DNA of 64,000 bases, taken from NCBI GenBank assembly GCA_036488155.1, contig DASXIA010000321.1, positions 16,023 through 80,022 of the forward strand, in the 5' to 3' direction. The position numbers and the translations under genes were made by a program. The notes beneath the pieces are model-generated. The model had not been told where the DNA came from, did not search any database, and saw nothing but the letters and a program-made list of their open reading frames with translations. This stretch comes from Streptosporangiaceae bacterium. Its GTDB lineage: Bacteria; Actinomycetota; Actinomycetes; Streptosporangiales; Streptosporangiaceae. This document shows, one piece after another, positions 4,359 through 40,008 of this stretch. Within the stretch, counting starts at the first letter, position 1, and the number at the start of each line of letters is the position of its first letter.

Positions 4359-4443
4359 TGATCCTCCTTGCCGCGGGCACCGCACAACCGCGGCACGCCG
4401 CGTGTTCCGGTCCTGACAAAGCCTCACGAGTCAAGCAAGCCTG

Positions 4444-7061: not shown

Positions 7062-8357
7062 TCAGCCAGTGGTGCCGCACCTGGGATCCGGCTCGAAACC
7101 GTATGCCTTCACCACGTTGGTGTCGGTGCAGAAGAGGCCCTTGTGGCCGATGAACTTCTCCAGGTTGGACGGGATGTGGTCCTTCGTGCCCGTGGCAAAG
7201 GGAACCACGACGTAGAGCCGCCGCTCAAACTGGGAGCTCACCCACTTCGGGTTGGTCACCGGGACCTTCGCCCCCCTGGGCGTCACGTATGGCGCTCCGA
7301 AGGGCTTGATGCTGTTCAGGCCGAACACGCCGATCTGGTTGCAGCCGAACTTGTTCTTGCCCTTGTGGCTTGCGTTCTTGCTGCAGCTAGCGGAGTGGTA
7401 CTTCTCGGCCAGGTACGCGCCGGTCGAGAACGGGTAGATCACGTTCGGGTTGGGCTTGCCGGATTTCGTCCCGCCAACGCGGAACACCGGGCTGATGCCC
7501 TCGTTCTCCTCAGGCTGCTGCGCGACGCCCAGGTTAGCAGCGGTGCCACAGGTGGGCTCGGAGGTCGTGGACAGGCCCAGCGCGGTCGCCATCCAGAACG
7601 AGAGCGTTCCTGACCCGGCCTGCGGGACGATCGGGTCGATGGCGCTACTTGCGCCCTTCGCGCTCGCCCCGAGCAGTGCGCCCCAGGTGTTGGCGCCAAA
7701 CCCGTTGGCGGCTGGCACGCTGCAGCTGAAGATTTCGATGAGCTGGTTCCTCGTCAGGTTGTTCGGCACGTTGGTCGATTCGCCCTTGAGGTTGGTGCTG
7801 GCGTAGGTGACAGCGTCAGCCCACAGCTCGTCGAACGCGATGCCGCCCTTAGCGTAAGGGGCGTCAGACGTCCCGCGTGGCCGCGAGGACCGCGCGAAGT
7901 TGGCGCACGCAACCGTGTGCGTCTTGCCCTTGTAGCTGTAGTGCGTGCTGCCGAGCTCGTTGGTCTCGAGCGCGGTAATACCGGCCCCAGACCCGTCGGG
8001 CCGCAGGTTCCGCTTGCAGCCTGCCTTGGGCACGATCTTCGAGGTGGTGTCGTTCAGGTTGCTCGGCGGCACCGCGTCCCAGCTGTAGATGTACGGGTTC
8101 GCCGGGGAGTCAGCCTTGGTCGTGCACCTGCCGGTTGTCTTCTTAGTGTTGGTGCCAAAGCAGTCGTAGTTGTACGTCAGCTGGTCGGTGATGTACGAGA
8201 TCGACTGCGACCCGACGCCGACGATGTCCCACGCTCTTGGCGTCACCGTCTTGTTGGTGTGCGGGTTGATCGGCTCAGCCAGAGCTGGAGCCGCCAGCAC
8301 CGCACTCGCGACGGCCGCTACCGCACCCGCCGCGAACAGAGTTTTCAGAAAGCGCAC
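7062..8357 (-). CDS. Secreted PstS-like (PBP_like_2 type) substrate-binding protein, orphan (no adjacent permease or ATPase)
   Basis: Signal peptide FLKTLFAAGAVAAVASAVLAAPALA. PstS-family landmarks are present: DIVGVGSQSISYITDQL, LRPDGSGAGITAL and IVPQAGSGTLSFW. I chose GTG 8357 as the start because GGGAGGA lies just upstream; the longest ORF starts at 8462. Confidence 0.7.
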   Translation of the reverse strand: MRFLKTLFAAGAVAAVASAVLAAPALAEPINPHTNKTVTPRAWDIVGVGSQSISYITDQLTYNYDCFGTNTKKTTGRCTTKADSPANPYIYSWDAVPPSNLNDTTSKIVPKAGCKRNLRPDGSGAGITALETNELGSTHYSYKGKTHTVACANFARSSRPRGTSDAPYAKGGIAFDELWADAVTYASTNLKGESTNVPNNLTRNQLIEIFSCSVPAANGFGANTWGALLGASAKGASSAIDPIVPQAGSGTLSFWMATALGLSTTSEPTCGTAANLGVAQQPEENEGISPVFRVGGTKSGKPNPNVIYPFSTGAYLAEKYHSASCSKNASHKGKNKFGCNQIGVFGLNSIKPFGAPYVTPRGAKVPVTNPKWVSSQFERRLYVVVPFATGTKDHIPSNLEKFIGHKGLFCTDTNVVKAYGFEPDPRCGTTG

Positions 8358-8460
8358 GCGTCCTCCCACAGACGATTGAGCGCGAACTACCGTGCAAGCA
8401 CTCGCACGGACCGCCGAGTGGCCGTCGCGCCTAAATATGCATGATGCTCGATAGGGCAAC

Positions 8461-8505
8461 AAGAAACGTTAATGAAGGCCTATCTGATGACTTGGTGAAC
8501 GGAGC
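8461..8505 (-). promoter_or_regulatory. PHO-box-like phased repeats abutting a candidate -35/-10 upstream of the PstS-like gene
   Basis: The minus strand reads GCTCCGTTCACCaagtCATCAGAtaggCCTTCATtaacGTTTCTTgTTGCCC, with TTCA-type cores recurring about every 11 nt. TTGCCC-16 nt-TATTTA follows. This is the first copy of the 13-mer TGGTGAACGGAGC (8493-8505). Confidence 0.3.
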
Positions 8506-8792: not shown

Positions 8793-10343
8793 TTATGGCA
8801 GCGCTGAGGGTCCGGCCGAAGCTCGGCGCTGGCCGCGCGGCGGGTCACCGGCCCACGGATCCACGTAGATGGAGTGCCCGTCGCTGGCCTGGGCTGCCGG
8901 GTCCGCCACTGGTGCTGCTACGGGCGCTCGCGCGGCGCCGCGCTGCCCGGCCAGCGCGCCTGTCATGCGCAGGGCGCGGTAGTTCGCCAGGCCTGCGGTC
9001 ACCGCGGCGCTCACGCCGATCTCCAGTGCCGACACGACGCCGACCTGCCAGGCGGACGGTCCGACCGCAGCGAGCCGCCCGTCGCCCAGCGGGCCGCCGG
9101 AGACCGCCGCCAGCAGTCCCAGCAGAATGCCTGCCGCCGCGCCGCACGCGAGGCCGAGCAGCGGCGCGGTGTCCAGGGACAGCGCCGGCGCGGCCCGGAC
9201 CAGCAGAACGCCGCCGAGCACGCCGGCCAGGTACGGCATCGCCAGGACGGTCGGCCCGATCCAGCCGGGCATCGCCGCATGCAGCCCCGGCGGCAGCGCT
9301 GCCAGCATCGGGAACGCCGGCAGCTGTGCCAGCGCCGAGCCGGTAGGCCCGACCACGGTGCCGGAACCGAATGCAAAGCCCGGGCCGAGCGAGAACGCGA
9401 TGGCCCAGATCACTGCATTCGGCAGGTAGCCGAGCTCCAGCAAGAACAGCAGGACCGAGCCGATAGCGCCGGGATCGAGGTCCCGCTCCAGCACGGCGGC
9501 CTCATGCATGTGCACGACCAGTGACGTCCCGGCAACCAATGCGCCTGCAGCAGCTAGAGTCGCTAGCGCGCCCGCGACGCCGACCACGACTGATCTCAGC
9601 CGGGCCGGCAACAGCCGGACGAGCTGGGGCCAGGGGGCCAGCGCCCGTGCGCCGCCGAGCCCGCCAGCGGCGAGCGCCAGCAGCAGCCCCCAGGCCACCG
9701 ACTGCAACAGTGACGACGACTCCAGTGCTGACCTGCTGGCCAGAGCTAGCGCCCCGGTCAGCAGCGCGTAGGGCGCGGCAAGCGCGACCGCTGCAGAGCC
9801 GACATGGCGCAGCCGCCGCACCTGCGCCGCCCTGACAACCCACTGGCCGGCCCGCCAGAGCAAGGCGCCCGGCAACAGGACAAGGCCGAGCGGAAGCAGG
9901 CCGATCCTGCCCGCACCGCGAAACGTGAAACCAACATGCTGGCCCACCAGCCACAGCGCCGCCGACATCCGAAGCACATCGGGCAGGCCGACACCCTCGT
10001 GCGGCGCCGCGATCCAGCCGATCAGCGCCAGCAAGGCAAGGACCGCAACGCCGGTCGCCGTGACTGCGACCGCAGCTAGCACACCCGCCACCAGCAGCGA
10101 CCGCTCGCCAGTGCCGGCTCCGTTACTCGCGGAGCCACTGTTTCGAGGGGCACGGTTTCCAGGGGCACCGTTTCCAGGACCCGTGCTTCCACGGGCACTG
10201 TCTCGGGGAGCGCTACTCCGCTGACCGCTGCTCCGATGATCGCTGCCAGCCGGACCGCCGGCCGCCCGCGCACCGGCCTGGGCGCGCTTGGCGGCCTGTC
10301 CGGCACCAACGGCGAAAGCAGTCACAAGACTCAAGCCTGGCAA
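8793..10343 (-). CDS. perM: Polytopic membrane protein, probable PerM (DUF6350-type) homologue
   Basis: 516 aa. A Gly/Ser/Arg-rich N-terminus is followed by roughly ten predicted hydrophobic segments. It sits between sucD and purN, as Rv0955 perM does in M. tuberculosis. The call rests on synteny plus architecture, and the start is uncertain. Confidence 0.5.
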   Translation of the reverse strand: MPGLSLVTAFAVGAGQAAKRAQAGARAAGGPAGSDHRSSGQRSSAPRDSARGSTGPGNGAPGNRAPRNSGSASNGAGTGERSLLVAGVLAAVAVTATGVAVLALLALIGWIAAPHEGVGLPDVLRMSAALWLVGQHVGFTFRGAGRIGLLPLGLVLLPGALLWRAGQWVVRAAQVRRLRHVGSAAVALAAPYALLTGALALASRSALESSSLLQSVAWGLLLALAAGGLGGARALAPWPQLVRLLPARLRSVVVGVAGALATLAAAGALVAGTSLVVHMHEAAVLERDLDPGAIGSVLLFLLELGYLPNAVIWAIAFSLGPGFAFGSGTVVGPTGSALAQLPAFPMLAALPPGLHAAMPGWIGPTVLAMPYLAGVLGGVLLVRAAPALSLDTAPLLGLACGAAAGILLGLLAAVSGGPLGDGRLAAVGPSAWQVGVVSALEIGVSAAVTAGLANYRALRMTGALAGQRGAARAPVAAPVADPAAQASDGHSIYVDPWAGDPPRGQRRASAGPSALP

Positions 10344-27982: not shown

Positions 27983-28840
27983 TCAGACTCCTGCCGCTGC
28001 CTCCAGAGCACGCCCGGTCAGCACCCGCGCGAGATGTCGCCGGTAATCCGGCGCTCCGTGCAGGTCCGCAGGCGGCTGTGTTCCCTCGGCCGCGCCAGAT
28101 GCTGCCTCGCGCAGCGTCTCGGAACTGGCGAGCGCGCCGGCGGCGGCCGTCTCGACGGCGGCCGCCCTGATCGGCACCGAACCCATGTTGGTCAGCCCGA
28201 CCCTTGCCTCGGCCACGTGGCCGTCGGAGCGCCGCACCAGCGCCGCGACGCCGACAATTGCCCACGCCTGCGCGGTCCGGTGGAACTTCTCATAACGATA
28301 TCCCCAGTCGGTGCCGAGCTTTGGCACCCGGATGCCGGTGAGTATCTCGCCGGGCTCAAGTGCCGTGGTCAGGTAGTCGACAAAGAACTCGCCGGCCCGG
28401 ATCTCCCGGCTTCCCGCCGGGCCGACGGCGATCAAGGTCGCGTCCAGCGCCAGGATGACGGCTGGCAGGTCGCCAGCCGGGTCAGCGTGCGCTAGCGAGC
28501 CGCCGATCGTGCCGCGATGCCGGACGGCCGGGTCGGCGACGGTGCCGGTCGCCTCGGCGAGCAGCCCGCAGTACTCGGCGATCAGCGGATCGTGAACGAC
28601 CTGGTAGTGCGTCGTCCGGGCGCCGATCAGCAGATGGTCGCCGCCGTCGGTGACGCCGTTCAGCTCGTCCAGGCCGCCGATATCGACCAGCAGCTCCGGG
28701 TAAGCAAGGCGCAACCGCAGCAGCGGCATCAGGCTCTGCCCGCCAGCGATCACCTTGGCGTCCTCACCGCCGCCGGCAAGAGCGCTCACCGCGTCGCCGA
28801 CAGACGACGGCCGGACGTAGTCGAACTTGGCCGGGATCAT
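27983..28840 (-). CDS. FAD-binding medium subunit of a xanthine dehydrogenase/CODH-family molybdoenzyme (CoxM-like)
   Basis: [21 protein letters not shown]...KVIAGGQSLMPLLRLRL. The start ATG 28840 overlaps the large-subunit stop (ATGA). Confidence 0.9.
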   Translation of the reverse strand: MIPAKFDYVRPSSVGDAVSALAGGGEDAKVIAGGQSLMPLLRLRLAYPELLVDIGGLDELNGVTDGGDHLLIGARTTHYQVVHDPLIAEYCGLLAEATGTVADPAVRHRGTIGGSLAHADPAGDLPAVILALDATLIAVGPAGSREIRAGEFFVDYLTTALEPGEILTGIRVPKLGTDWGYRYEKFHRTAQAWAIVGVAALVRRSDGHVAEARVGLTNMGSVPIRAAAVETAAAGALASSETLREAASGAAEGTQPPADLHGAPDYRRHLARVLTGRALEAAAGV

Positions 28841-31212
28841 GCCGCGCCTCCGCTCTGCTCGCTGCTCTGGACTGCCTGGATCGCACGCCAGACCCGTTCC
28901 GGCGTGCACGGCATGGTGACGTCACGGACGCCGAACGGCCGGAGGGCATCCACGATCGCGTTCACCACTGCCGGCGTGGAGGCGATCGTGCCTGCCTCGC
29001 CTACGCCCTTGACACCGAGCCGGTTGCTGGCGGGTGTTTCGGTGCGTTCGGTCTTGTACGACGGCAGGTCGGCCGCCGACGGCACCAGGTAGTCAGCCAG
29101 CGTCGTGGTGAGCAGGTTGCCTGCGTCGTCGTAGACGCCCTCCTCGTACAGCGCCTGGGCGATGCCCTGAGCGATGCCGCCGTGCACCTGGCCTTCCACG
29201 ATCAGGGGATTCACCACGACGCCGACGTCGTCGACCGCGACGTAGCTGCGGATCTTCACGAAACCGGTCTCGGTGTCGACCTCGGTCGCGCACAGGTGCG
29301 TGCCGTGCGGGAACGAGAAGTTGTCCGGGTCGTAGGTAGCGTCGGAGTCCAGGGAGGGCTCGACACCGTCAGGCAGGGCGTGCGCAGCGAAGGTGGCCAG
29401 CGCGACCTCCTGGATCGACTTGCTCGCCTCCGGGTCACCCTTGACCGAGAAGCGCCCGGCCGAGAACTCCAGGTCGTCCTCCGAGGCTTCCAGCATCGCC
29501 GCGGCGATGATCTTGGCCTTGGCAACCACCTTGTCGCAGGCGCCAACCAGGGCTATGCCGCCGACCGCGAGCGAGCGCGAGCCATAGGTGTCCATGCCCT
29601 TGGGCGAGACCTGCGTGTCGCCATGCAGCACCCTGATGTCCTCGAACGGCACACCGAGCTGGTCGGCCACGATCTGGCTCCAGGCCGTCTCGTGCCCCTG
29701 ACCGTGCGCGCTGGAGCCGGTGACTACCTCGACCTTGCCGGTAGGCAGCATCCGGATCGAGGCGGACTCCCAGCCGCCCGCGCCGTAGGAGAGTGAGCCG
29801 AGCACCCTGGAGGGGGCCAGGCCGCACATCTCGGTAAAGGTCGAGATGCCGATCCCGAGCCGCACCTTGTCGCCCCGCTCATTGCGCAGCCGCTGCTCCT
29901 CGCGCAAGCCGTCGTAGTCGAATAGCACCTTCGCCTTGGCTGTCGCCGCCTCGTAATTGCCCGAGTCGTAGGTGAGGCCGCAAATGGTCGTGTACGGGAA
30001 CTCCTCGTGCTTGATCCAGTTGCGCTCCCGCAGCTCCAGCGGCTCGATGCCGAGTGAGTCCGCGAGCTCGTCCATGATGCGCTCAATCGCGAACGTCGCC
30101 TCCGGTCGCCCGGCGCCGCGATAGGCGTCGGTCGGCATCTTGGTCGTGAAGACACCGGTGCACTTGAACGAGTACGCGTCCATCTTGTAGATCGCCGGGA
30201 ACATGAATGCGCCCAGCAGCGGCACGCCGGGCGTGACCAGCATCAGGTAGGCACCCATGTCGGCGAGCAGGTCGACCTCCAGGCCGCGGATCCGGCCGTC
30301 GGTGTCGGCGGCGATCTTGATCCGCTGCCACTGATCCCTGCCGTGATGGACGGTCTGGTTGCCCTCGGTGCGCGATTCGTTCCACTTGACCGGCTTGCCG
30401 ACCTTGCGGCCGATCAGCACGGCCAGCACTTCCTCAGCGGTGACCTGCAGCTTCGAGCCGAAGCCGCCGCCCACGTCGGGGGCGATGACCCGGACGTTCT
30501 GCTCCGGGATGCCGAAGAACGCCGACAGCGCGAACCGCAGCACATGGGGGATCTGCGTGGCCGACCAGAGCGTGACCTCGTCGCCGATCCACTGCGCGAC
30601 CACTGCGCGCGGCTCCATCGCACACGGGATCAGCCGCTGCTGCCGGTAGTTCCGCTCCAGTACGACGGGGGCGTCACGGAACGCCGCGTCGACGTCTCCG
30701 TTGGCGAACACCCACTCGTAGCTCTTGTTACCTGCGTCGTGCACCTTCGGCGAGTCCTCGTCCAGCGCGGTGCGGATATCCAGGACCGGAGGCAGCGGCT
30801 CGTAGTCCACGTCGATCGAGGCCAGCGCGTCCGCCGCGGCGTACCTGTCGCGCGCGACGACTACGGCTACCGCCTCGCCTACGTAACGGACCTCGTCGAC
30901 GGCCATCGGCGGGTGGGGCGGGATGACGATGTCAGGAGTCACCGGCCAGGCGCACGGCAGGCTGCCCTGCTCACCAGCGAAGTCGGCGCCGGAGAAGGCG
31001 GCAATCACGCCGGGCTGGCTGAGCGCGCCGCTGACGTCCACCCTGGTGATCTTCGCGTGCGCGTACGGGCTACGCAGAAACGCCAGGTGCAGCATGCCGG
31101 TCAGCTTGATGTTGTCCGTCCAGTTGGTCTGGCCGGTGATCAGCTTCGCGTCTTCCTTGCGCAGCCTGGCCCGGCCGAGCTCGGCGGCCGGCGTGTCGAT
31201 TGTCGCGGTCAC
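28837..31212 (-). CDS. Molybdopterin-binding large subunit, form II CoxL-like (AYRGAGR active-site loop)
   Basis: [18 protein letters not shown]...; the active-site loop is [14 protein letters not shown]. The start GTG 31212 overlaps the small-subunit stop (GTGA). Confidence 0.9.
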
Positions 31213-31676
31213 TGGGCCACTCCCGCCTCTGCCGCGCGCTTGACCGCGCGGACGATGTTCTCGTAACCGGTGCACCGGCAAAGGTTGCCCTCCAGGCCAT
31301 CCCGGATCTCTTCCTCAGTGGGATGGGGGTTGTCGCGGAGCAGGTCGGTCGCCGCCATGATCATGCCGGGCGTGCAGTACCCGCACTGCAGGGCGTGCTC
31401 CTCGTGGAAGGCCCGCTGCACCGGGTGCAGTTCGCCGTTCGCCAGGCCTTCAATGGTCGTCACGTCGGAGCCGTCAGCCTGGACTGCGAGAACTGAGCAA
31501 CTCTTCACCGATTGCCCGTCCATCAAGACTGTGCACGCACCGCAGTTCGAAGTGTCGCACCCGACTGGCGTACCGGTCTTACCGACAACTTCCCTGAGAT
31601 AATGGACGAGTAGCAAGCGAGGCTCGACTTGATCTGCGTACTTAACGCCGTCAACCGTGACGGTGATATGCGTCAT
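31209..31676 (-). CDS. [2Fe-2S] small subunit (CoxS-like)
   Basis: [11 protein letters not shown]...[16 protein letters not shown]...[12 protein letters not shown]...CRCTGY are the two 2Fe-2S cysteine clusters. Confidence 0.92.
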
Positions 31677-31762
31677 TCGCTGACACCTCCGGGGACATGG
31701 CACTTGCGCCTCAGGCAAACTTAGGACGGCAGAACCCGGCGCACCAGTCCCAGGCGTGGTGT

Positions 31763-32683
31763 TTAGCCGAACCGGCCGTGCACGTAATCCGCCGTCCGCG
31801 GGTCGGCCGGATCCTCGAAGATCTGCCGGGTCGGCCCTGCCTCGACGATGTGACCCGGAGTGCTGTCAGTAGCCAGGAAAAATGCGCAGTTCTCCGATAC
31901 CCGCTGCGCCTGCTGCATGTTGTGCGTCACGATCACGATCGTTACGACCTGCTCGAGCTCGCGTATTGTCTCCTCGATCACCCTGGTCGATGTCGGGTCC
32001 AGCGCAGAGCATGGCTCATCCATCAACAGCACGTCTGGCGAGATGGCCAGCGACCTGGCGATGCACAGCCGCTGCTGCTGGCCACCGGAGAGCGCGCCGC
32101 CGGGCGAGCGAAGCCTGCGGTGCACTTCGTTCCACAACCCGGCCCGGCGCAGGCTCCCCTCGACGATCTCGCTAGTGTCGCGAACCTTGATGCCGCTGAG
32201 CTTCAGCCCGCTTGCCACGTTGTCGTAGATCGACATAGCCGGGAACGGGTTCGGCTTCTGGAACACCATCCCGATCCGCCGCCTGACTTCAGCCGGACGC
32301 ACCGTGGGGTCGTAAATGTCGTGGTCGGCTAGCAGCACCTGGCCAGAGAGCTGGGCGCCCTTGACCATCTCATGCATGCGGTTGAGAATCCGAAGGAACG
32401 TCGACTTGCCGCAGCCGGACGGCCCGATCAGCGCCGTTACTGTGCCTGGTTCCATGCGCAGCGATACCCGTTCAAGGACCTTGTGCCCGCTGAACCAGGC
32501 GGACACGTTCCTTGCCTCCAGGCCAAGAAGCGGCGCCTGCGGGCTGAGGACCGCGGTATCGGCGCCCATCCACTGCGCTGCGTCCGGCGGATACACGCCG
32601 CGCTGTCCTTCGGCTGAATCAGTCATGGCGGCTGCTCCCGTTCGTCTGCGGGTCATCGTCATCGTGGCGTCTGTCCTCGGCAC
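31763..32683 (-). CDS. pstB: Phosphate ABC transporter ATP-binding protein
   Basis: [24 protein letters not shown] (Walker A and the PstB-specific context), [28 protein letters not shown]. The start is uncertain: GTG 32683 is 2 nt past the upstream stop, and there is an internal ATG at 32626. Confidence 0.93.
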
Positions 32684-32685
32684 GG

Positions 32686-33549
32686 CTAGAAGATGTTGGG
32701 CAGCAGGGCCGCCAGGCTCTCATACAGGTTCCAGAGAATGGCCACTACCGCCGGAGCGGCGACCAGGTACACCGCCCACGGCGACCATCGTGCGGCGGCG
32801 TAGCCGCACCCAACCGCCACCAACGCGAGCGCCAGTCCCCAGGTCATTGTCAGCACCAGCGAGCCGCTATCCCCGGCCAGCGCTAGCTCCGACGGGCCGA
32901 TCGCCGGGAACTGCACATACCCGTTATTTGCCTTTGTGGTCAGGTCAGCATCGACCTCTAGGTAGTAGGCAGGCACGTCTGGCGAGTTCGCCGTAAGCAG
33001 CACAAGCCGATTTAGCGTCGGATCCTTGACCGGATGCTGGCTGTCGCCGATCGCTGCCACCTTATAGACCGAGGTGCCCTGCTGCGTGATCGTGATGATC
33101 TTGTCGCCAAGCCGCAGCTGGTCCAGCCGGGCGAACGGGCCGCCGAAGGTCTCTCGCCTTCCGTAGATCACCGACAGGCCCAGTTGCCCAGGCAGTGGCG
33201 TGTTGCGCAAGTGACCAGGACCGAGAGTTAGGTTCTCCGGCGATGTCCCTTCGACCACCACCATGTGGCGTATGCCGATGGTCGGGATGTCCAGCAGCGC
33301 CAGTGGTGCGCCGGGCTTCGTCGGGCCGAGCGGGCCGGTGTCCTGGCCAAGTTCGTAGGCCAGCTTCGTGTACAGCCCGTGCTGCACGTTGGCCTCTTGA
33401 ATATCCGAGCCGCCCAGCAGATAGCCGATGAAGCCCGCGATCAGCAGCGTGAGCAACAGCAGGCTCACGGCTACGCAGCGGGCAGCTGAGTACCTGCTGG
33501 CCTCCTCGCCGGCGGTCGCCTCCCGCTTGGCCGGCACAACCACCGTCAT
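32686..33549 (-). CDS. Membrane-anchored sortase-fold protein lacking the catalytic His, Cys and Arg (pseudo-sortase)
   Basis: The core LDIPTIGIRHMVVVEGTSPENLTLGPGHLRNTPLPGQLGLSVIYGRRETFGGPFARLDQLRLGDKIITITQQGTSVYKV...RLVLLTANSP parallels class E sortase motifs. It has YGRR in place of AGHR and TANSP in place of TC.P. There is one N-terminal and two C-terminal TM segments. The ATG overlaps the upstream PstS stop (ATGA). Confidence 0.65.
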   Translation of the reverse strand: MTVVVPAKREATAGEEASRYSAARCVAVSLLLLTLLIAGFIGYLLGGSDIQEANVQHGLYTKLAYELGQDTGPLGPTKPGAPLALLDIPTIGIRHMVVVEGTSPENLTLGPGHLRNTPLPGQLGLSVIYGRRETFGGPFARLDQLRLGDKIITITQQGTSVYKVAAIGDSQHPVKDPTLNRLVLLTANSPDVPAYYLEVDADLTTKANNGYVQFPAIGPSELALAGDSGSLVLTMTWGLALALVAVGCGYAAARWSPWAVYLVAAPAVVAILWNLYESLAALLPNIF

Positions 33550-35150
33550 CTGGGGGCCCGTCGCCGGCGACGGGTAGCCGCGTAGATGGCAGGAGGCGCC
33601 CCGACAGCAACCAGGATCAGCGCCGCCGCGACGAACCCGACCATAGCGGGACTACCGTTGCTGGAGGCGACGAGCACTGCTGAGCCCGTCACGGGCCCCT
33701 GTTGCGCGGTCGTCCCGCCACCGGATTGCCCGGGGCCGGTCGTGCTGGCGTTCGAACCGCTGGGGCTCGTTGCGTTTCCGGTACTGGCGGAACTTCCCGA
33801 ATTCGGCGTTGCGCCCGGGGCCGACGCTTTCCCGTTCACGACTACGCAATCCAGCGGCTCGCCGGCTTTCTGACATGGCGATGGCTTCGGCGCGTCCTTC
33901 AGGACGGTGAGCACGCCTTTAGTGAAAGTCGGATTATTGCAATTGCTGGACAGGCTCGGCTCCGGCACGGCGCCAGGAATTTTGGCAGCCTGATTGAGCC
34001 CGCCCTGGACCAGGTTGAGCGGAAGCGGCGAATAACCTAGCTCGGCTGAGTATTGCTGGCCAGCACACAGGAAATAGTTAATATATGTACTCAGAGTATT
34101 GCCGTCCGCGTTGCTGAAATTGCCAGAGGTCTTAGTGCTAGATCTCGGCACGACCAGGTAGCTGTAGCTCGACAGCGGATACGAGCGCGGGTCTTTGTAT
34201 GTGTAAACACTGTCCAGGTCTTGCTGCAGGTAGTTCGGGCTGCTGGCGTTCTCGTTGATCTGTGCCTGGGTCAGCGCGACGGCCACGTTAGACGCCGTGG
34301 GCTTGACGTAATAGCCTGCCGGGTTCAGCAGGCTGACCACTGGGTAGTGGATCGCCAGCGCATAAGCATATTCGTCATAGCCGATAGCGCCCTGGCCATA
34401 ATTTGCCGAGATGTAGGTCGCGACATTCTCTGAGCCGTTCTGCGAAACTGATGCACCCCAGCCGCCAGGGTAGAACTCGGTCGCCCCGCATGGCTTGCCA
34501 GACCCGCCGACCTTGCCGTGGCTCACCCGATTACAGAAGGCACCCCATAGGCTGGGGTAGACATGTGAAAGCCAGCGGGTAAAGAAATAGGTAGCGCCCG
34601 AACCGTCCGACCGGACGACCGGGATGATCGGAATGTTCGGCAGCTGCTGACCGTAGTCGTGGGTAATTTCTTTATTGTCCCAGTTAGTAATCTGGCCAGT
34701 GAATATCTTCGCGACTGTCGTACCGGACAGCCGCAGGTTGGTGATCTGCTTCCCACCTACGTCCAGGTGGTACATGAAGGAAGTTCCGCCGGCTGTGTCC
34801 GGGATGTAGGAATACCCGTACGGCGAAATTTCCGCGCCACCCTGGTCGAACGGATCAGTGCTGCTGCGGAAAGGCGGATCCGACGCGGCGAAATTCACCT
34901 GGCCGCCCATGTAGTTCTGCCGGCCTGCCTCCGACCCGTCCGGGTTGAAGTTGATCACAATCCCGTCCGTACGCAGGTTCTCGGCCCACTGATTGAGGGC
35001 GACGTAACTCCAGGTAGAACCCGCGCCGTTGATTGCGGTGTAAGTGCCGGCCGAACTCGCCAGGGCGGGCGAAACCGGCGCCGCAGCCGCCAGGGCGACC
35101 CCAAGGATCAGCATGAGCCGGCGGCCGGCAAAGCGATGACGAGATCTCAT
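33546..35150 (-). CDS. pstS: Phosphate-binding protein PstS with Sec signal peptide, low-complexity stalk and C-terminal TM anchor (no lipobox)
   Basis: INGAGSTWSYVALNQW, NFNPDGSEAGRQ, NFAASDPP, LSGTTVAKIFTGQITNWDN and IPVVRSDGSGATYFFTRWL reproduce the PstS phosphate-ligand motifs. The N-terminus ends ...PALASS (signal peptidase I-like, no Cys). The C-terminus is ...GPVTGSAVLVASSNGSPAMVGFVAAALILVAVGAPPAIYAATRRRRRAPR. Confidence 0.85.
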   Translation of the reverse strand: MRSRHRFAGRRLMLILGVALAAAAPVSPALASSAGTYTAINGAGSTWSYVALNQWAENLRTDGIVINFNPDGSEAGRQNYMGGQVNFAASDPPFRSSTDPFDQGGAEISPYGYSYIPDTAGGTSFMYHLDVGGKQITNLRLSGTTVAKIFTGQITNWDNKEITHDYGQQLPNIPIIPVVRSDGSGATYFFTRWLSHVYPSLWGAFCNRVSHGKVGGSGKPCGATEFYPGGWGASVSQNGSENVATYISANYGQGAIGYDEYAYALAIHYPVVSLLNPAGYYVKPTASNVAVALTQAQINENASSPNYLQQDLDSVYTYKDPRSYPLSSYSYLVVPRSSTKTSGNFSNADGNTLSTYINYFLCAGQQYSAELGYSPLPLNLVQGGLNQAAKIPGAVPEPSLSSNCNNPTFTKGVLTVLKDAPKPSPCQKAGEPLDCVVVNGKASAPGATPNSGSSASTGNATSPSGSNASTTGPGQSGGGTTAQQGPVTGSAVLVASSNGSPAMVGFVAAALILVAVGAPPAIYAATRRRRRAPR

Positions 35151-37627
35151 GGCCTAGTCCTCCTCGGGAGCCGCAGACCGGGCAGGCGCTGGGTCAGCAC
35201 GCGCGCTCGGCGCAGCCTGCTGAGGGCAGCAGCGCCGCCGCGCCGCCCCACGACGAGCCCGGTAGAACCGGCCAAAGCAAGCAGTACGCCAGCGATGAGC
35301 AGTACCTGCAGGGCATACCTGGCTGGCCCAGAGGTACCCGGATGGCTGTCGTAGCCAAGGCTGATGGTTCGCGGACTCGACGACTTGGTAGCGGAAGCCG
35401 ATGACGATGGGCTCGCAGAAGCAGTCGGCGTAGTGCTTGCAGCGTGCTTGGCTTTCTTACCGGCCTGATTGAGTACCTCGCGGGCCGCTTTGAGAGTCTG
35501 CGCCCGCATCGTGGCGGTCAGCGGCAGGTAGCCAGGAGGCAGCTCGCCGGGACCGAACCCGGGCTGCTGGCCTGGGCCAGCTACGTAGTCAAGCCATTGG
35601 GCGATCTTGGCTGCCTTCCGCTTCGAGATTCCCCCGGTCGGGACCATTGCGTAGATGACTATTGTCAGCGGGTAAGCAGTGCGGAACTTCTTACTTGTGT
35701 TTTTCAAATTGAACTGCTGGGTGACGCCATTCTTCGCGGTCGTCATATCGCCAAGCGCAGCGCTCATGCTCGCCGCGGTAGGCGCGGCGTAATTGCCTGC
35801 TGGGTTCTCCACTGACGCCACCGGCAGACGGTAGGCGGCGGCGTCGGACTGGTCGAGGACCGCGAACAGGGAACGCGTGCCGGGAATCTCCGGACTTGGC
35901 GGTGGAAAGCTGCCGTTCGCGACCGGAATCCACTGAGTACCGGGCGACATGTCGTTCACCTGATTCTGAGCGACCGCACTGAGCGGGAAGACAGGAACAA
36001 ACTGACGCTGGATCGGCGGGAACGGATCGAACGAATTCAGCGCGCTGGTCGGAAGCTTCATGCCGAGGTACCAGGAATTGACATGCGCGCCCCAGGGGTC
36101 AAAGCTGCCGCCAGCGAACGCCTTCGCATCCTTGTTCGCGGATATCCACTTGGTGAGTTCCGTGGTCATGTCGCTTTGGCCGGACAACACGGTGGGTATC
36201 TCATACGGATACGCGGGACTCACGGGCGGGAAATGCGGGTTAAGCTTTCGGAACTCGGGATCCACGAAGAGTGACGCCGGGTCATTGTCAACCCCGTTGT
36301 CGCACGTGCGACCCTTGTGAGGCGGGCCGTTACCGCACCCCTCATTCGAGAAGTTAAAGGACTGGGTCAGCAGCTTGAGCACCAGCCTCGGGTCGAGTTT
36401 GAGATGGCTGTCCTGCTTTCCCGTCCTGGAGTTGTCGACCCCAAATGCGACGGACTCCGCCGTGATGGCCACCGGGGCGTAGGTAAATGGCCGCGCCGCG
36501 CCACCGGTCGAAGTGACCGGAAGCGTGGTGAATCCGACGTCCGCCGTGGGCGGGCTGGCCGTGAAATCCGTCCGGGCCAGCGGCTCGCCCTGGGTCGAGT
36601 CATACCGGATGACCACTGGGCTGGCGGAAGCGCACAGCTTGGTCTGCCAAGACGTCATCGCGCGAGCCAGCATCGGCGAGCCGATCGCGCTGAATTGAGA
36701 ATTGCGCACCGGGCAGTTCGTGGGCGTCGGCGCGAAGTGGATCGGCACTATAATCCGGTCTCGCCAGGCGCAGATCCCGGTTTGGGAACCGAATGAGGAG
36801 CTTCCGGTGGCGTATTCGAATAGCCCCTTATCCTCGCTGTGATCCTTGCAGTGGCCGTTGCCGGCATTGCCGCCATCGGCCGCATCTATGATCAGCGAGC
36901 ACGCGTGGCCTTGACCGCAGCCTAGGTTCGGGGCCTCTTGCGCAGTGAGCAACTGAATGTATGCGACTCCCGTTCCGTCGGGCGACGTTGTCGCGTACAC
37001 GGTGTTGTACGGCCCGAACTGGCTCTCCTGCGCTGCCGCACCGCTGTTGTTGACGCCGAAGCACTGGCTCCGTTTCGTCGGGTGAGGGACGGAGCACTGG
37101 GCAATCATGACCGGGTAGAAGGTCGTGATCGCCTGGTAGGGCAAGCCCTGACTCGGTGTGAACCCTCGCCACTTCACCTGGACTACCTGGTTGACCAGCG
37201 AACCCACCTGGGTGACCGTGACGTAGCTGGGGTTAGAGAAGTATTTGTGCTTCGCCGGATCCCACATCTTCGGCCCCTTGACGACCGCGCCCCCTGGTGG
37301 CGTTGGCGGCCGGGCTGTGGGGTGGCCCGGCTTGGGTGAATGACTCGGGCTGGGTTTCGGTGACTTGCTCGGTGCCGGTGACACGCTCTGCGTTGGTGAC
37401 GTGCTTGCCGTCGGCGACTGGCTGGGCGTGGACGACTGGCTCGGTTGCCCCGCGACGACACTCGCGTGCGCATCCGAGGCGATCCCGGCTGCCGAGGGCA
37501 GTAGCGCGACGGCCATCACTATCGATCCGGCACCGGCCAGCACGAACACTCGACGGGCAAAATCAGGTGCCGGCAGTCGCGAACGCAAGGTGCCCCTCAT
37601 CTGGTGGTCCTGACCGGGACGGTTCAT
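35147..37627 (-). CDS. Large (~826 aa) surface protein: signal/TM, Pro/Ser/Thr-rich stalk, Cys-containing domain, degenerate PstS-like domain, C-terminal TM anchor
   Basis: VFVLAGAGSIVMAVALLPSAAG, then a QPSQSSTPSQSPTASTSPTQSVSPAPSKSPKPSPSHSPKP stalk. The PBP-like part runs NSQFSAIGSPMLARAMTSWQTKL...IPTVLSGQSDMTTELTKWI...AYPLTIVIYAMVP. The tail is SHPGTSGPARYALQVLLIAGVLLALAGSTGLVVGRRGG. I chose ATG 37627 as the start because it overlaps the pstA stop (ATGA); the longest ORF starts at 37834. Confidence 0.65.
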   Translation of the reverse strand: MNRPGQDHQMRGTLRSRLPAPDFARRVFVLAGAGSIVMAVALLPSAAGIASDAHASVVAGQPSQSSTPSQSPTASTSPTQSVSPAPSKSPKPSPSHSPKPGHPTARPPTPPGGAVVKGPKMWDPAKHKYFSNPSYVTVTQVGSLVNQVVQVKWRGFTPSQGLPYQAITTFYPVMIAQCSVPHPTKRSQCFGVNNSGAAAQESQFGPYNTVYATTSPDGTGVAYIQLLTAQEAPNLGCGQGHACSLIIDAADGGNAGNGHCKDHSEDKGLFEYATGSSSFGSQTGICAWRDRIIVPIHFAPTPTNCPVRNSQFSAIGSPMLARAMTSWQTKLCASASPVVIRYDSTQGEPLARTDFTASPPTADVGFTTLPVTSTGGAARPFTYAPVAITAESVAFGVDNSRTGKQDSHLKLDPRLVLKLLTQSFNFSNEGCGNGPPHKGRTCDNGVDNDPASLFVDPEFRKLNPHFPPVSPAYPYEIPTVLSGQSDMTTELTKWISANKDAKAFAGGSFDPWGAHVNSWYLGMKLPTSALNSFDPFPPIQRQFVPVFPLSAVAQNQVNDMSPGTQWIPVANGSFPPPSPEIPGTRSLFAVLDQSDAAAYRLPVASVENPAGNYAAPTAASMSAALGDMTTAKNGVTQQFNLKNTSKKFRTAYPLTIVIYAMVPTGGISKRKAAKIAQWLDYVAGPGQQPGFGPGELPPGYLPLTATMRAQTLKAAREVLNQAGKKAKHAASTTPTASASPSSSASATKSSSPRTISLGYDSHPGTSGPARYALQVLLIAGVLLALAGSTGLVVGRRGGAAALSRLRRARVLTQRLPGLRLPRRTRP

Positions 37628-38880
37628 GAGTTGGCCGCCTCCCGGCTGAGCTTGCGGATTTGCCGCCTGGACAGCTCGCCTGGACGTCCGCCGCCGACCA
37701 CGCGCGCGATCGTGAACAAGACCAGCACGACGAGCATGAGCGCGAGGCTGGCCCCGAAAGCACGGGCGATGAACTCGGCCCGGCCTTCTGCCTCGACGTA
37801 GGTGAAGATAAGAGTCGGCAGCGTGGCTTGCCACCCGTGGAAGGGGTCGGCATTCATGACGTTACTGAACCCGTCCGCAAGTAGCACCGGCGCAGTCTCG
37901 CCGATTCCGAGTGCCATCGCCAGCACTACGGCTGTTGTCAGGCCCGAGCGGGCCGTTGGCAGGATCACTTGCCAGACGGTGCGCCATTGGCTGGCGCCAA
38001 GGGCGAAGGCTGCCTCGCGCAGTGTGCCCGGCACCACCCTGAGCACGACTTCCGATGCCCGGATCACCGTCGGAAGCATGATGATGGCGATGGCCAGCGA
38101 GGCGGCGAAACCGGACTCCGGCAAGCCGAGAGCAAGGATCGCCAGCGAGTAGATGAGCAATCCGGCGACCACCGACGGCAGCGCGGTCATCGCATTAACG
38201 ATCATGCGAACGGGGCGTTCCATCCTGCCGCCGATCTCGGTCAGAAACAGGGCCGCAGTAATACCGAGCGGCACCGAGGCCAGGCTGGCGAGAGCGAGAA
38301 TTTCAAGCGAGCCGACGGTGGCGTGCAGCACGCCTCCCTTGTTCAGCGGCGTCAGTGCAGCCACTGCTGCGGCGGTTGTGGTCCAGAAGTTCAAGTGGGC
38401 GATTGCCGGGAGGCCCTTGACGAAGCTGTAGCCAAGCTGGTCGGCGACGACCGCGCTGGCGAAGATCCCGCCGGTGCTTACGAGCACAGCGACGGTCTTG
38501 TCGCTGACCACACGCCGGTTCCACTGCAGCCCGGCGGCGGCCAGGTACAACACGACGAACGCCAGGTACCAGCAGAGCCAGAAACCGAACGCGCCGCTGA
38601 GCGGCAGCACCCGTTCGAAGAGCACCCAGGTCAGGCAGAGAGCGCCCACCGCGGCGCCGGCCACCGTGAGCACGTCCTCCGCCGTGACCCGACGGATCTG
38701 CAGCGGCACATCACTCTGCAGCGGCACATCGCTCTGCACCGACACATCGCTCTGCACCGGCACATCGCTCACGCCGTGATCAGCGCTGCCGGGCCGCGCA
38801 GCCGCACGTTCATCGACCGCACCGTCACTGCGCGCACTGTCAGATCGCTGTCGTTCGGTGGCCGGGCCTGTGGTGGTCAT
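37624..38880 (-). CDS. pstA: Phosphate ABC transporter permease PstA with a ~100-aa N-terminal extension
   Basis: LFLTEIGGR...MTALPSVVAGLLIYS...IIMLPTVIRASEVVLRVVP..LREAAFALGASQWRTVWQVILPTARSGL (EAA loop). 418 aa versus about 300 aa for typical PstA. Confidence 0.9.
   Translation of the reverse strand: MTTTGPATERQRSDSARSDGAVDERAAARPGSADHGVSDVPVQSDVSVQSDVPLQSDVPLQIRRVTAEDVLTVAGAAVGALCLTWVLFERVLPLSGAFGFWLCWYLAFVVLYLAAAGLQWNRRVVSDKTVAVLVSTGGIFASAVVADQLGYSFVKGLPAIAHLNFWTTTAAAVAALTPLNKGGVLHATVGSLEILALASLASVPLGITAALFLTEIGGRMERPVRMIVNAMTALPSVVAGLLIYSLAILALGLPESGFAASLAIAIIMLPTVIRASEVVLRVVPGTLREAAFALGASQWRTVWQVILPTARSGLTTAVVLAMALGIGETAPVLLADGFSNVMNADPFHGWQATLPTLIFTYVEAEGRAEFIARAFGASLALMLVVLVLFTIARVVGGGRPGELSRRQIRKLSREAANS
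38701..38772 (-). repeat. Four tandem 18-bp in-frame repeats inside the pstA N-terminal extension
   Basis: Units CAGCGGCACATCACTCTG / CAGCGGCACATCGCTCTG / CACCGACACATCGCTCTG / CACCGGCACATCGCTCAC encode VSDVPV-QSDVSV-QSDVPL-QSDVPL. Confidence 0.9.
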
Positions 38881-38913: not shown

Positions 38914-39915
38914 TCACTCCGCGGTCGCGGCACCCGACCGCGACCTGTTGATAACGAGCGCAGCAAACGAGTTCACGACCAGCGTGAGGGCGAACAGCAC
39001 CAGGCCCGACGCCATCAATGCGGACAGCTGAATATGGCTTGCCGACGACCAATCTCCCGCGATCAATGCGGCGATTGACTCGCTGCCCTCCTGCAGGACA
39101 TGCGGGTTGAACGTGTATATCGAGTTAACGATGAGGAGCACCGCGATCGTCTCGCCGAGCGCGCGTCCGATTCCGAGCATGCACGCGCCGATCACGCCGC
39201 CCTTACCGAACGGGATGACAACGGCCCTGATCATGCCCCACCGTGTCGATCCGAGCGCATAGGCAGCCTCTCGCTCGCCCTGCGGCGCCTGAGAGAAAAC
39301 CTCGCGCGACAGCGAGGTGATGATCGGGATCACCATCAGGCAGACCACTAGCCCGGCGATAGCCGAGGAGCCGACGAAGGCCGACGCGCTCGGCTGGATC
39401 GCGAGCCGGAACGGCGGGAACCATCTGCTGTTATGCGAGAGCCAGCCCATAGTGCCGATCGCCCTGGGCATGAACCAGTACCGGCCCCAGAGTCCGTAAA
39501 CAATGCTCGGGATCGCCGCCATCAGGTCGATGACGGCAATGAGTACCCGGCGAATCGGGCCGGGCGCATACTCGGAGATGAAGAGCGCGGTAGCGATCGC
39601 CACCGGGATCGCAAAGATGCTGGCGATAGCGCCGATGATGATCGTAAGTGGCAGCACGCCGCCGATGCCGAACTCGTTGTTGACGAAGTTCCAGCTCTGC
39701 TTCGTGAAGAAGGTCAGTCCGTCGGCACCGAATGCTGGAAGGCTGCGGTACATCAGGAAGACCAGGATGAGCCCGGTGAAGGCGAAGCTCGACAGGCCGC
39801 CAATGCGAAGTATGGCGCGGAACAGTGCATCGGCTCGTGACACTCGGGTTACGATCGTGCGCGGAGTGTCGTCGTCGTCCGGCACCGCCGCAGCGGAAGT
39901 CACCGCGATGGCCAT
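38914..39915 (-). CDS. pstC: Phosphate ABC transporter permease PstC
   Basis: FISEYAP..IRRVLIAVIDLMAAIPSIVYGLWG...SREVFSQAPQGEREAAYALGSTRWGMIRAVVIPFGKGG (EAA loop). The start is ATG 39915, preceded by GGGAGGG; the longest ORF starts at 39951. Confidence 0.92.
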   Translation of the reverse strand: MAIAVTSAAAVPDDDDTPRTIVTRVSRADALFRAILRIGGLSSFAFTGLILVFLMYRSLPAFGADGLTFFTKQSWNFVNNEFGIGGVLPLTIIIGAIASIFAIPVAIATALFISEYAPGPIRRVLIAVIDLMAAIPSIVYGLWGRYWFMPRAIGTMGWLSHNSRWFPPFRLAIQPSASAFVGSSAIAGLVVCLMVIPIITSLSREVFSQAPQGEREAAYALGSTRWGMIRAVVIPFGKGGVIGACMLGIGRALGETIAVLLIVNSIYTFNPHVLQEGSESIAALIAGDWSSASHIQLSALMASGLVLFALTLVVNSFAALVINRSRSGAATAE

Positions 39916-40008
39916 GCCGACGTCCCTCCCGTACCGGTAGCGGGGCAGCACGAAGCAGCCGCGCCCGCCTCAAACCAGGCCAATACATAGTGTTGGATTC
40001 GGATTTCT

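Follow-up and report, generated by a model that had tools for sequence, protein, structure and literature searches.

A 64,000-nucleotide stretch of contig DASXIA010000321.1 (assembly GCA_036488155.1, Streptosporangiaceae bacterium), hereafter called the window and meaning the whole stretch of DNA that was analysed, contains a gene for a protein with a sortase fold, which we name pSrt (pseudo-sortase). Sortases are the textbook cysteine transpeptidases that pin proteins to Gram-positive cell walls, and they serve as drug targets and as protein-engineering tools. The pSrt open reading frame (ORF), at 32686..33549 on the minus strand, begins with ATG and encodes 287 amino acids followed by a stop codon. 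It belongs to an operon whose order on the minus strand is pstC-pstA-Big-PstS-pSrt-pstB, where Big designates a PstS-related, binding-protein-like gene. All features located below by their window coordinates are on the minus strand.

Against the Pfam Sortase model (PF04203), pSrt scored 54 bits, for a gathering score of 26.6. The alignment was restricted to model positions 1–83 out of 125, and in distant members of the pSrt family it extended over positions 1–124. The top NCBIfam model was class_E_sortase (NF033747), with 71 bits over model positions 8–158 out of 211 only, which is below the 160-bit cut-off for assignment to class E. When the pSrt sequence was compared by phmmer with the chains of the Protein Data Bank (PDB), SrtD (4d70) was matched with an E-value of 8e-10. 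The single pSrt sequence was left unaligned through the Cys region, and a family profile was therefore built from 71 relatives sharing 31–54% identity. This profile aligned with class E sortases over the whole domain (5go6, 100 bits, E 1.5e-27; 5go5, 98 bits, E 7e-27).

A structural model was obtained with AlphaFold2, using the same diverse 71-sequence alignment. Its mean predicted local distance difference test score (pLDDT) was 94.3 and its predicted template modelling score 0.88. With 38 close homologues (64–86% identity) as input instead, pLDDT fell to 47 and the model was unusable. In the confident model, a long helix (residues 13–68) leads into a beta-barrel (82–203), followed by two helices (230–254 and 257–280) and by a coil tail (281–287), which is ordered, with a pLDDT of about 95. 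The 50 best Foldseek matches in the PDB were all sortases, many of class C among them. Template modelling scores normalised by the target were 0.79 for SrtD (4d70, E 1.1e-10) and 0.71 for SrtE 5go6, the SrtE structures ranging from 0.69 to 0.71. The model and these matches both identify the eight-stranded sortase barrel, which we delimit at residues 80–203 (32941..33312) from the predicted strands, Foldseek and the profile alignment with 5go5 and 5go6. By its structure, pSrt thus belongs to the sortase superfamily, where it is closest to classes E and D.

Hydropathy and the predicted helices agree on the membrane architecture. A first transmembrane (TM) segment, at about residues 22–46 and preceded by basic residues, is predicted to anchor an extracytoplasmic domain, as in sortases. 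It is prolonged by an extracytoplasmic stalk helix (residues 47–68) containing the family-invariant Gln56 (TM1 and stalk, 33346..33486). Beyond the barrel, the two C-terminal helices form a TM hairpin (32710..32862). The short cytoplasmic turn between TM2 and TM3 carries Arg254, present in 395 of the 430 family members that we aligned. By the positive-inside rule, the basic N-terminus together with Arg254 in the turn implies that the hairpin brings the C-terminus back outside, beside the barrel.

The three catalytic positions of sortases were then located on pSrt by alignment. In the phmmer alignments, the aGHR motif of 5uus, 5go5, 4d70 and 5utt stands opposite yGRR in the query, so that the position of the catalytic His (His120 in SaSrtA, His251 in SrtE1) is occupied by Arg131 (codon 33157..33159; GHR to GRR). 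In the profile alignment with class E sortases, the family string srLtLvTa faces RYLTLVTC, and srrlyVdA faces SHRLIVWA. Transferred to the query (NRLVLLTANSPDVPAYYLEVDA), this alignment puts Ala187 (32989..32991; LTLxTC to LVLLTA) in place of the nucleophilic Cys of TLxTC (Cys184 in SaSrtA, Cys320 in SrtE1), and Tyr196 (32962..32964) in place of the catalytic Arg of the last strand (Arg197 and Arg329, respectively). The only cysteines of pSrt, C25 and C248, both lie within predicted TM helices, leaving the ectodomain devoid of Cys.

These substitutions are a family trait. Among the 430 aligned members, the His position holds Arg in 402, Lys in 22 and His in 6. At the Cys position we counted Ala 239 times, Ser 133, Thr 40, Gly 8 and Val 5, and Cys never. 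The Arg position is more variable (Tyr 210, Arg 79, Val 36, Thr 27, and others), the sortase residue being kept in a clade of 79. None of the six members with His at position 131 has the nucleophile Cys. Cysteines do occur beside the former Cys and Arg positions, at 188 and at 197, in 13 of the 430 members each; if Cys188 and Cys197 are paired within the same members, they could form a disulfide across the last two strands. Judged from these alignments, pSrt is predicted to be catalytically dead, all three catalytic positions having been replaced. As it has none of the catalytic residues and also falls short of the class E cut-off, we advise against classifying it among the sortase enzymes.

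The gene is nevertheless under purifying selection. Comparison with eight orthologues by the Nei-Gojobori method gave ratios of nonsynonymous to synonymous substitution (dN/dS) of 0.15–0.27, a range equal to that of the adjacent PstS gene and slightly above that of pstB. In 121 close homologues the length is constant, and the G-R-R, LLT[AST][SNT]SP and YYLEVDADL motifs are kept. An exhaustive HMMER search over 1.84 billion cluster representatives showed that the family comprises at least 167 clusters at 50% identity (representatives with E<1e-30). Most of the 150 representatives listed matched from about residue 20 to residue 286, C-terminal helices included, with 35–55% identity. By source name, members come from metagenome-assembled genomes (MAGs) of Streptosporangiaceae and Trebonia, from cultured Actinacidiphila and Actinokineospora, and from Acidimicrobiia and Gaiellales MAGs; the family hence spans Actinomycetes, Acidimicrobiia and Thermoleophilia. 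The window protein and the 430 aligned relatives share a set of hallmarks: TM1, a Cys-less barrel, the TM hairpin, and a terminal L-L-P-x-x-x-COOH. pSrt is one member of an old family spanning the phylum Actinomycetota.

The sequence-only reading had described the product of this gene as a sortase fold with His, Cys and Arg all substituted and no extracytoplasmic Cys, bearing one N-terminal and two additional C-terminal TM helices, and kept in frame. Each of these points held: the fold by the Pfam score, the confident model and the Foldseek matches, the substitutions by alignment to sortase structures, the helices by hydropathy and modelling, and the maintenance of the gene by its dN/dS. Among the aligned relatives, moreover, Cys is absent in 430 out of 430 and His is replaced by Arg or Lys in 424, the Arg being kept in 79.

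A motif that had gone unnoticed lies at the very end of the protein. The family tail is seven residues long and ends L-L-P-x-(T/L/I/V)-hydrophobic-COOH, which is LPXT-like. In the window protein it reads ALLPNIF (residues 281–287, 32689..32709). Pro284 is found in 429 of the 430 members, and the chain stops exactly three residues past that position in all 430. In the window's own clade and related sequences the consensus is LLP-N-[LIV]-[YLMF]. A diverse clade, with some 90 sequences, has LLP-[AGS]-T-[LF], an LPXT-like motif ending one residue beyond the Thr.

Covariation between the tail and the rest of the protein was analysed by mean-field direct-coupling analysis (DCA; effective number of sequences, 237) and by mutual information with average product correction (MI-APC; 157–188 down-sampled representatives). 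With DCA, the pair Tyr196-Ile286 came 8th overall, behind seven pairs that can plausibly be read as contacts inside the fold, including 84–98 in a hairpin, 125–183 between strands, 234–275 between TM2 and TM3, and the salt bridges 115–221 and 176–181. With MI-APC, 196–286 and 196–285 took ranks 1 and 2 out of 25,878 pairs, making the former Arg position the strongest partner of tail residue 286. The pairs 198–286, 200–286 and 200–285 were within the top 11 to 15, and 223–285, 125–285 and 60–285 were also high. Taken together, the high-ranking tail pairs define a single, consistent surface on one face of the last strand.

Part of this signal comes from the members that kept the sortase Arg: 74 of these 79 have Thr286, in an LP[AGS]T[LF] tail, versus 17 of the 351 others. 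We considered whether the Arg196/Thr286 association could be purely phylogenetic, and set this aside: most of it is found in one clade, yet without the Arg196 clade the pair 196–286 still came 10th out of 25,878. The remaining pairings were then Ser196 with Thr286, Phe196 with Ile or Val, and Val, Thr or Ala196 with Leu. The crystal structure of SrtE1 shows a tripeptide bound next to the catalytic residues Arg329 and Cys320 (PMC5148588). Combined with this geometry, the covariation places residue 286 at the site of the substrate P1 Thr. It points to the tail as a candidate ligand of the former active site, and the tail would fill the old substrate groove as a pseudo-substrate, either in cis or between neighbouring molecules.

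The genes around pSrt encode homologues of PstC, PstA, PstB and PstS. The pstC permease (38914..39951) scored 245.3 bits against TIGR02138, above the cut-off of 196.45. The pstA-like permease (37624..38880) gave 185.7 bits against TIGR00974 (cut-off 193.45); at its N-terminus (38700–38880) we noted an extension of about 60 residues with the tandem peptide repeat SDVPVQ SDVSVQ SDVPLQ SDVPLQ. The PstS-type phosphate-binding protein (33546..35150, 534 aa) matched PBP_like_2 with 116 bits, TIGR00975 with 163.9 bits (cut-off 205), and the PDB PstS 8ods with an E-value of 6e-25. As for pstB, its longest ORF (31763..32683) gave 335.3 bits against TIGR00972 (cut-off 343.2); judging by the junction sequence, translation probably begins at an internal ATG no more than about 60 nt from the stop of pSrt. 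PstA, PstB and PstS being just under their equivalog cut-offs, specificity for phosphate is inferred. The Big gene (35147..37627, 826 aa from the ATG at 37627) had no Pfam match above threshold and no match among PDB sequences. It showed a weak TIGR00975 match over residues 664–779, and homology to the N-terminal parts of three fused ORFs described below. Directly downstream of pstB, at 27983–31718, lie three ORFs that we labelled coxS, coxL and coxM (molybdenum-hydroxylase / CO-dehydrogenase-like) by eye from their translations; coxS and coxL are syntenic with the pst-pSrt cluster at most orthologous loci.

The junctions pstA/Big, Big/PstS and PstS/pSrt are ATGA overlaps of 4 nt, implying co-translation. 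The proposal that pSrt is translationally coupled to two upstream secreted proteins is thereby supported; that these proteins are of PstS type, within a pst operon, had not been recognised from the sequence alone. Both begin with a signal peptide that looks cleavable and has no lipobox Cys, contain a linker of low complexity, and end in a hydrophobic segment with a basic tail. In PstS, the linker is rich in Ser, Thr and Gly and is followed by GPVTG, the C-terminal TM segment and RRRRR. Big ends with HPGTSG, ARYALQ, the TM segment and a basic tail. The two proteins had been credited with sorting-signal-like tails, and this description holds in part: signal peptide, C-terminal TM segment and basic tail are all there, but the motifs are the degenerate GPVTG and HPGTSG rather than LPXTG or LAXTG. 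The window, scanned in all six frames, contains no L[PA]xTG sorting signal.

The linkage to pst genes was followed through the family. At 16 out of 16 genome loci, the order was pstC-pstA-Big-PstS-pSrt-pstB, as in the window. For more distant relatives (about 35–45% identity), 80 metagenome loci were collected with a 14-sequence subfamily alignment. Here the arrangement was pstC-pstA-pstB-PstS-Big-pSrt, or divergent. Wherever the flank was long enough, pSrt came directly after a Big-like or PstS-like gene and beside pstC-pstA-pstB-PstS, about 20 of these loci having the full set. Of the 80 loci, none with at least 5 kb of upstream sequence lacked pst and binding-protein genes. Among 67 loci evaluated, 63 have, just upstream of pSrt, a gene whose product ends in a TM segment followed by basic residues. 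An equivalent module, with a 4-nt Big/pSrt overlap in each case, exists in a genome of Acidimicrobiia and in a MAG of Gaiellales. In three cases, P0194 (1211 aa), P0211 (980 aa) and P0234 (706 aa), a single ORF joins a Big/PstS-like protein, C-terminal TM anchor included, to pSrt. These are true fusions or merged gene calls, and in both cases they bear out that the two genes are neighbours in distant relatives. PstS-like, Big-like and pstCAB genes thus accompany pSrt in three classes of Actinomycetota and in relatives with as little as about 35% identity.

The details of the neighbouring proteins are less constant. The GPVTG and PxT[SA]G motifs are confined to the window's clade and are absent from the distant loci. 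In Actinokineospora auranticolor (CP154825.1) and Actinacidiphila yanglinensis (FNVU01000002.1), Big and pSrt are separated by several genes for additional secreted proteins. The protein encoded directly upstream of pSrt ends with a true class-E-type signal, LASTG or LAATG followed by a TM segment and a basic tail (L097 7283-8875, CP154825.1; L099 7410-8879, FNVU01000002.1).

The interpretation that we favour, with a probability of roughly 0.55, is that pSrt is a non-catalytic accessory subunit of a Pst-type importer, its groove being filled by its own pseudo-substrate tail. PstS and the large PstS-related protein would be held on the membrane by their C-terminal TM/poly-Arg anchors and not by lipid. 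The old LPXTG-binding groove would survive as a peptide-binding site, occupied by the LPXT-like tail of pSrt itself. Capped in this way, pSrt may be a rigid module at the membrane surface which, through its three TM helices and its juxtamembrane surface, would organise or retain the TM-anchored binding proteins beside PstC and PstA. Several observations weigh against this interpretation. The conserved neighbourhood is the sole ground for supposing a contact of pSrt with PstCA or with the binding proteins, and the docking of the tail is deduced from covariation and pLDDT only. By UPGMA (unweighted pair group method with arithmetic mean) clustering and Fitch reconstruction, the Arg196/Thr286 association is largely contained in one deep clade of 94 sequences, and the number of independent events behind it is therefore small. 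The coupling of residue 286 to the former Cys position is weak (187–286, MI ranks 185 to 488). If the groove is permanently self-occupied, the need for a peptide-binding fold is left unexplained. Finally, the extra secreted proteins of Actinokineospora and Actinacidiphila, one with a genuine LAXTG signal, mean that the set of partners is not restricted to Pst proteins. A bolder version would make pSrt the first sortase pseudoenzyme, and a self-capped fifth, obligatory Pst component throughout Actinomycetota, not recognised before, that positions the juxtamembrane segments of the binding proteins or exchanges its tail with them; this we regard as tentative, and lean against it.

Alternatively, in line with the tail recognition, retention or assembly suggested by the sequence-only reading, the dead groove could bind the C-terminal regions of the upstream binding proteins in trans, retaining or assembling them without cleavage; in a variant of this proposal, the tail of pSrt is an autoinhibitory lid that the tails of its neighbours displace. 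Translational coupling and the invariant adjacency to genes ending in a TM segment and a basic tail agree with binding in trans, as does the presence, ahead of the TM segment, of GPVTG in PstS and of [NH]PxT[SA]G in Big in the window's clade. Throughout the family, Big-type anchors have two hydrophobic residues, Pro, any residue and a hydrophobic one at the start of the TM segment (ARYxLP, SRLVLP, KALPL), which resembles the LLPx(L/T)-hydrophobic tail of pSrt, and in two cultured genera a genuine LASTG or LAATG signal is encoded directly upstream. On the other side, PxTG-like motifs are limited to the window's clade and missing at distant loci, and the groove residues covary most strongly with pSrt's own tail. 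We consider binding in trans doubtful, at about one chance in a few. The link with phosphate transport might also be coincidental or historical, pSrt helping to organise the envelope, serving the housekeeping class E sortase as a decoy or regulator, or acting as a cell-wall tether by means of its LPXT-like tail. Its tail does resemble a sortase recognition motif and is exposed outside, where a real sortase could in principle act on it, and some loci have additional surface proteins that are not Pst components. This is unlikely, because pstCAB and two binding-protein genes have been kept through three classes and through rearrangements of gene order, the 4-nt overlaps imply co-translation, and the tail, unlike a sortase substrate, has neither the required Gly nor a TM segment and basic residues after it.

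Two further explanations concern the state of the protein itself. pSrt could still be an enzyme, using another nucleophile (for example Thr186, Ser189 or Ser187, with Arg131) to cleave or transfer the anchors of the binding proteins. Thr186 is present in 411 of the 430 members and Ser189 in 266, the neighbours are substrate-like, and the sortase groove is retained. Thr186, though, is the conserved Thr of the canonical TLxTC and is for this reason inherited, not new. Position 187 is Ala in 239 members and varies among A, S, T, G and V, the His that served as general base has given way to Arg or Lys in 424, position 196 is variable, and no conserved polar triad has taken over from the lost one. 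On these conservation counts an alternative Ser/Thr nucleophile was set aside as very improbable. Lastly, the loss of all three catalytic residues and a Pfam alignment limited to the first two thirds of the domain are what a decaying sortase pseudogene or an annotation artefact might give. This is refuted by the dN/dS of 0.15–0.27 and by conservation: constant length and many invariant positions are found over 121 close and 430 total homologues. The confident, compact model and the spread of the family over three Actinomycetota classes also speak against decay, and we retain practically no belief in it.

We found in the literature no description of a conserved, catalytically dead branch of sortases or of a link between sortases and Pst, though our coverage was incomplete and an earlier description may exist. 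In public databases, members of the family carry the labels ‘sortase A’, ‘class D sortase’ or ‘class E sortase’, which are functionally misleading. The strict association of the family with a variant operon for phosphate uptake makes it probable that pSrt proteins matter when soil actinomycetes scavenge phosphate. pSrt would offer a natural example of a peptidase groove re-used for binding a putative pseudo-substrate, and its operon one of ABC (ATP-binding cassette) binding proteins that are anchored through C-terminal TM helices and have a partner of their own. If the bolder version is true, it represents a new mode of coupling substrate-binding proteins to an ABC transporter. The cultured carriers, Actinokineospora and Actinacidiphila, make these hypotheses directly testable.

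Other genes in the window deserve mention. A secreted 768-aa protein (2121–4427) has a Pfam Phosphoesterase domain (PF04185, phospholipase C / acid phosphatase type), then a long Trp/Gly-rich repeat region, and is a further candidate for phosphate scavenging. Another secreted protein of 466 aa (7062–8462) belongs to PBP_like_2; it has a signal peptide, no C-terminal TM anchor, and no match in NCBIfam. Further PBP_like_2 genes (327–413 aa) are present in the pSrt loci of Actinokineospora, Actinacidiphila and Gaiellales. The product of 8793–10343 (516 aa) is assigned to DUF6350, an uncharacterised family, with 244 bits.

Among known systems, class E sortases (5GO5 and 5GO6 of Streptomyces avermitilis, SrtE1 of S. 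coelicolor, 5CUW, and SrtE of Thermobifida fusca) are the best match to pSrt by sequence and profile. They share with it the barrel fold, the N-terminal TM anchor, the GPGH...PGxxG...G-x-R-x-T-[FY]-G-x-PF and LTLVT motifs, and an actinobacterial distribution. Unlike them, pSrt has Arg for His, Ala for Cys and Tyr for Arg, stays below the class E cut-off, possesses a C-terminal TM hairpin and an invariant LLPx(T/L)-hydrophobic tail, and is encoded in a pst operon, not beside LAXTG substrates. The best structural match is the class D sortase SrtD of Clostridium perfringens (4D70). SrtD, in contrast to pSrt, is an active Cys transpeptidase for LPXTA-type signals, without a C-terminal TM hairpin or a terminal tail motif.

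In class C (pilin) sortases, the groove is occupied by a lid from the same chain, and there are membrane anchors at both ends of the catalytic domain. The likeness to pSrt lies in the anchoring at two ends and in the self-occupied groove that we propose here. The class C lid, however, precedes the barrel, has a DPW-type motif and regulates a live Cys/His/Arg site, whereas the putative occupant in pSrt is an LPXT-like extreme C-terminus in a dead site. Outside sortases, the inactive rhomboids (iRhoms and derlins) are dead relatives of a membrane peptidase that have been kept as client-binding or scaffolding factors for membrane-anchored proteins. They are an analogue of pSrt in concept only, of unrelated fold and from another kingdom. 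As to the transporter, the operon resembles canonical actinobacterial PstSCAB, with pstC over its cut-off and pstA, pstB and PstS clear homologues just below their equivalog cut-offs. It departs from it by binding proteins that use a C-terminal TM segment with poly-Arg as their anchor and have no lipobox, by a second PstS-related protein of about 650–830 aa, by an unusual gene order, and by the presence of a gene with a sortase fold.

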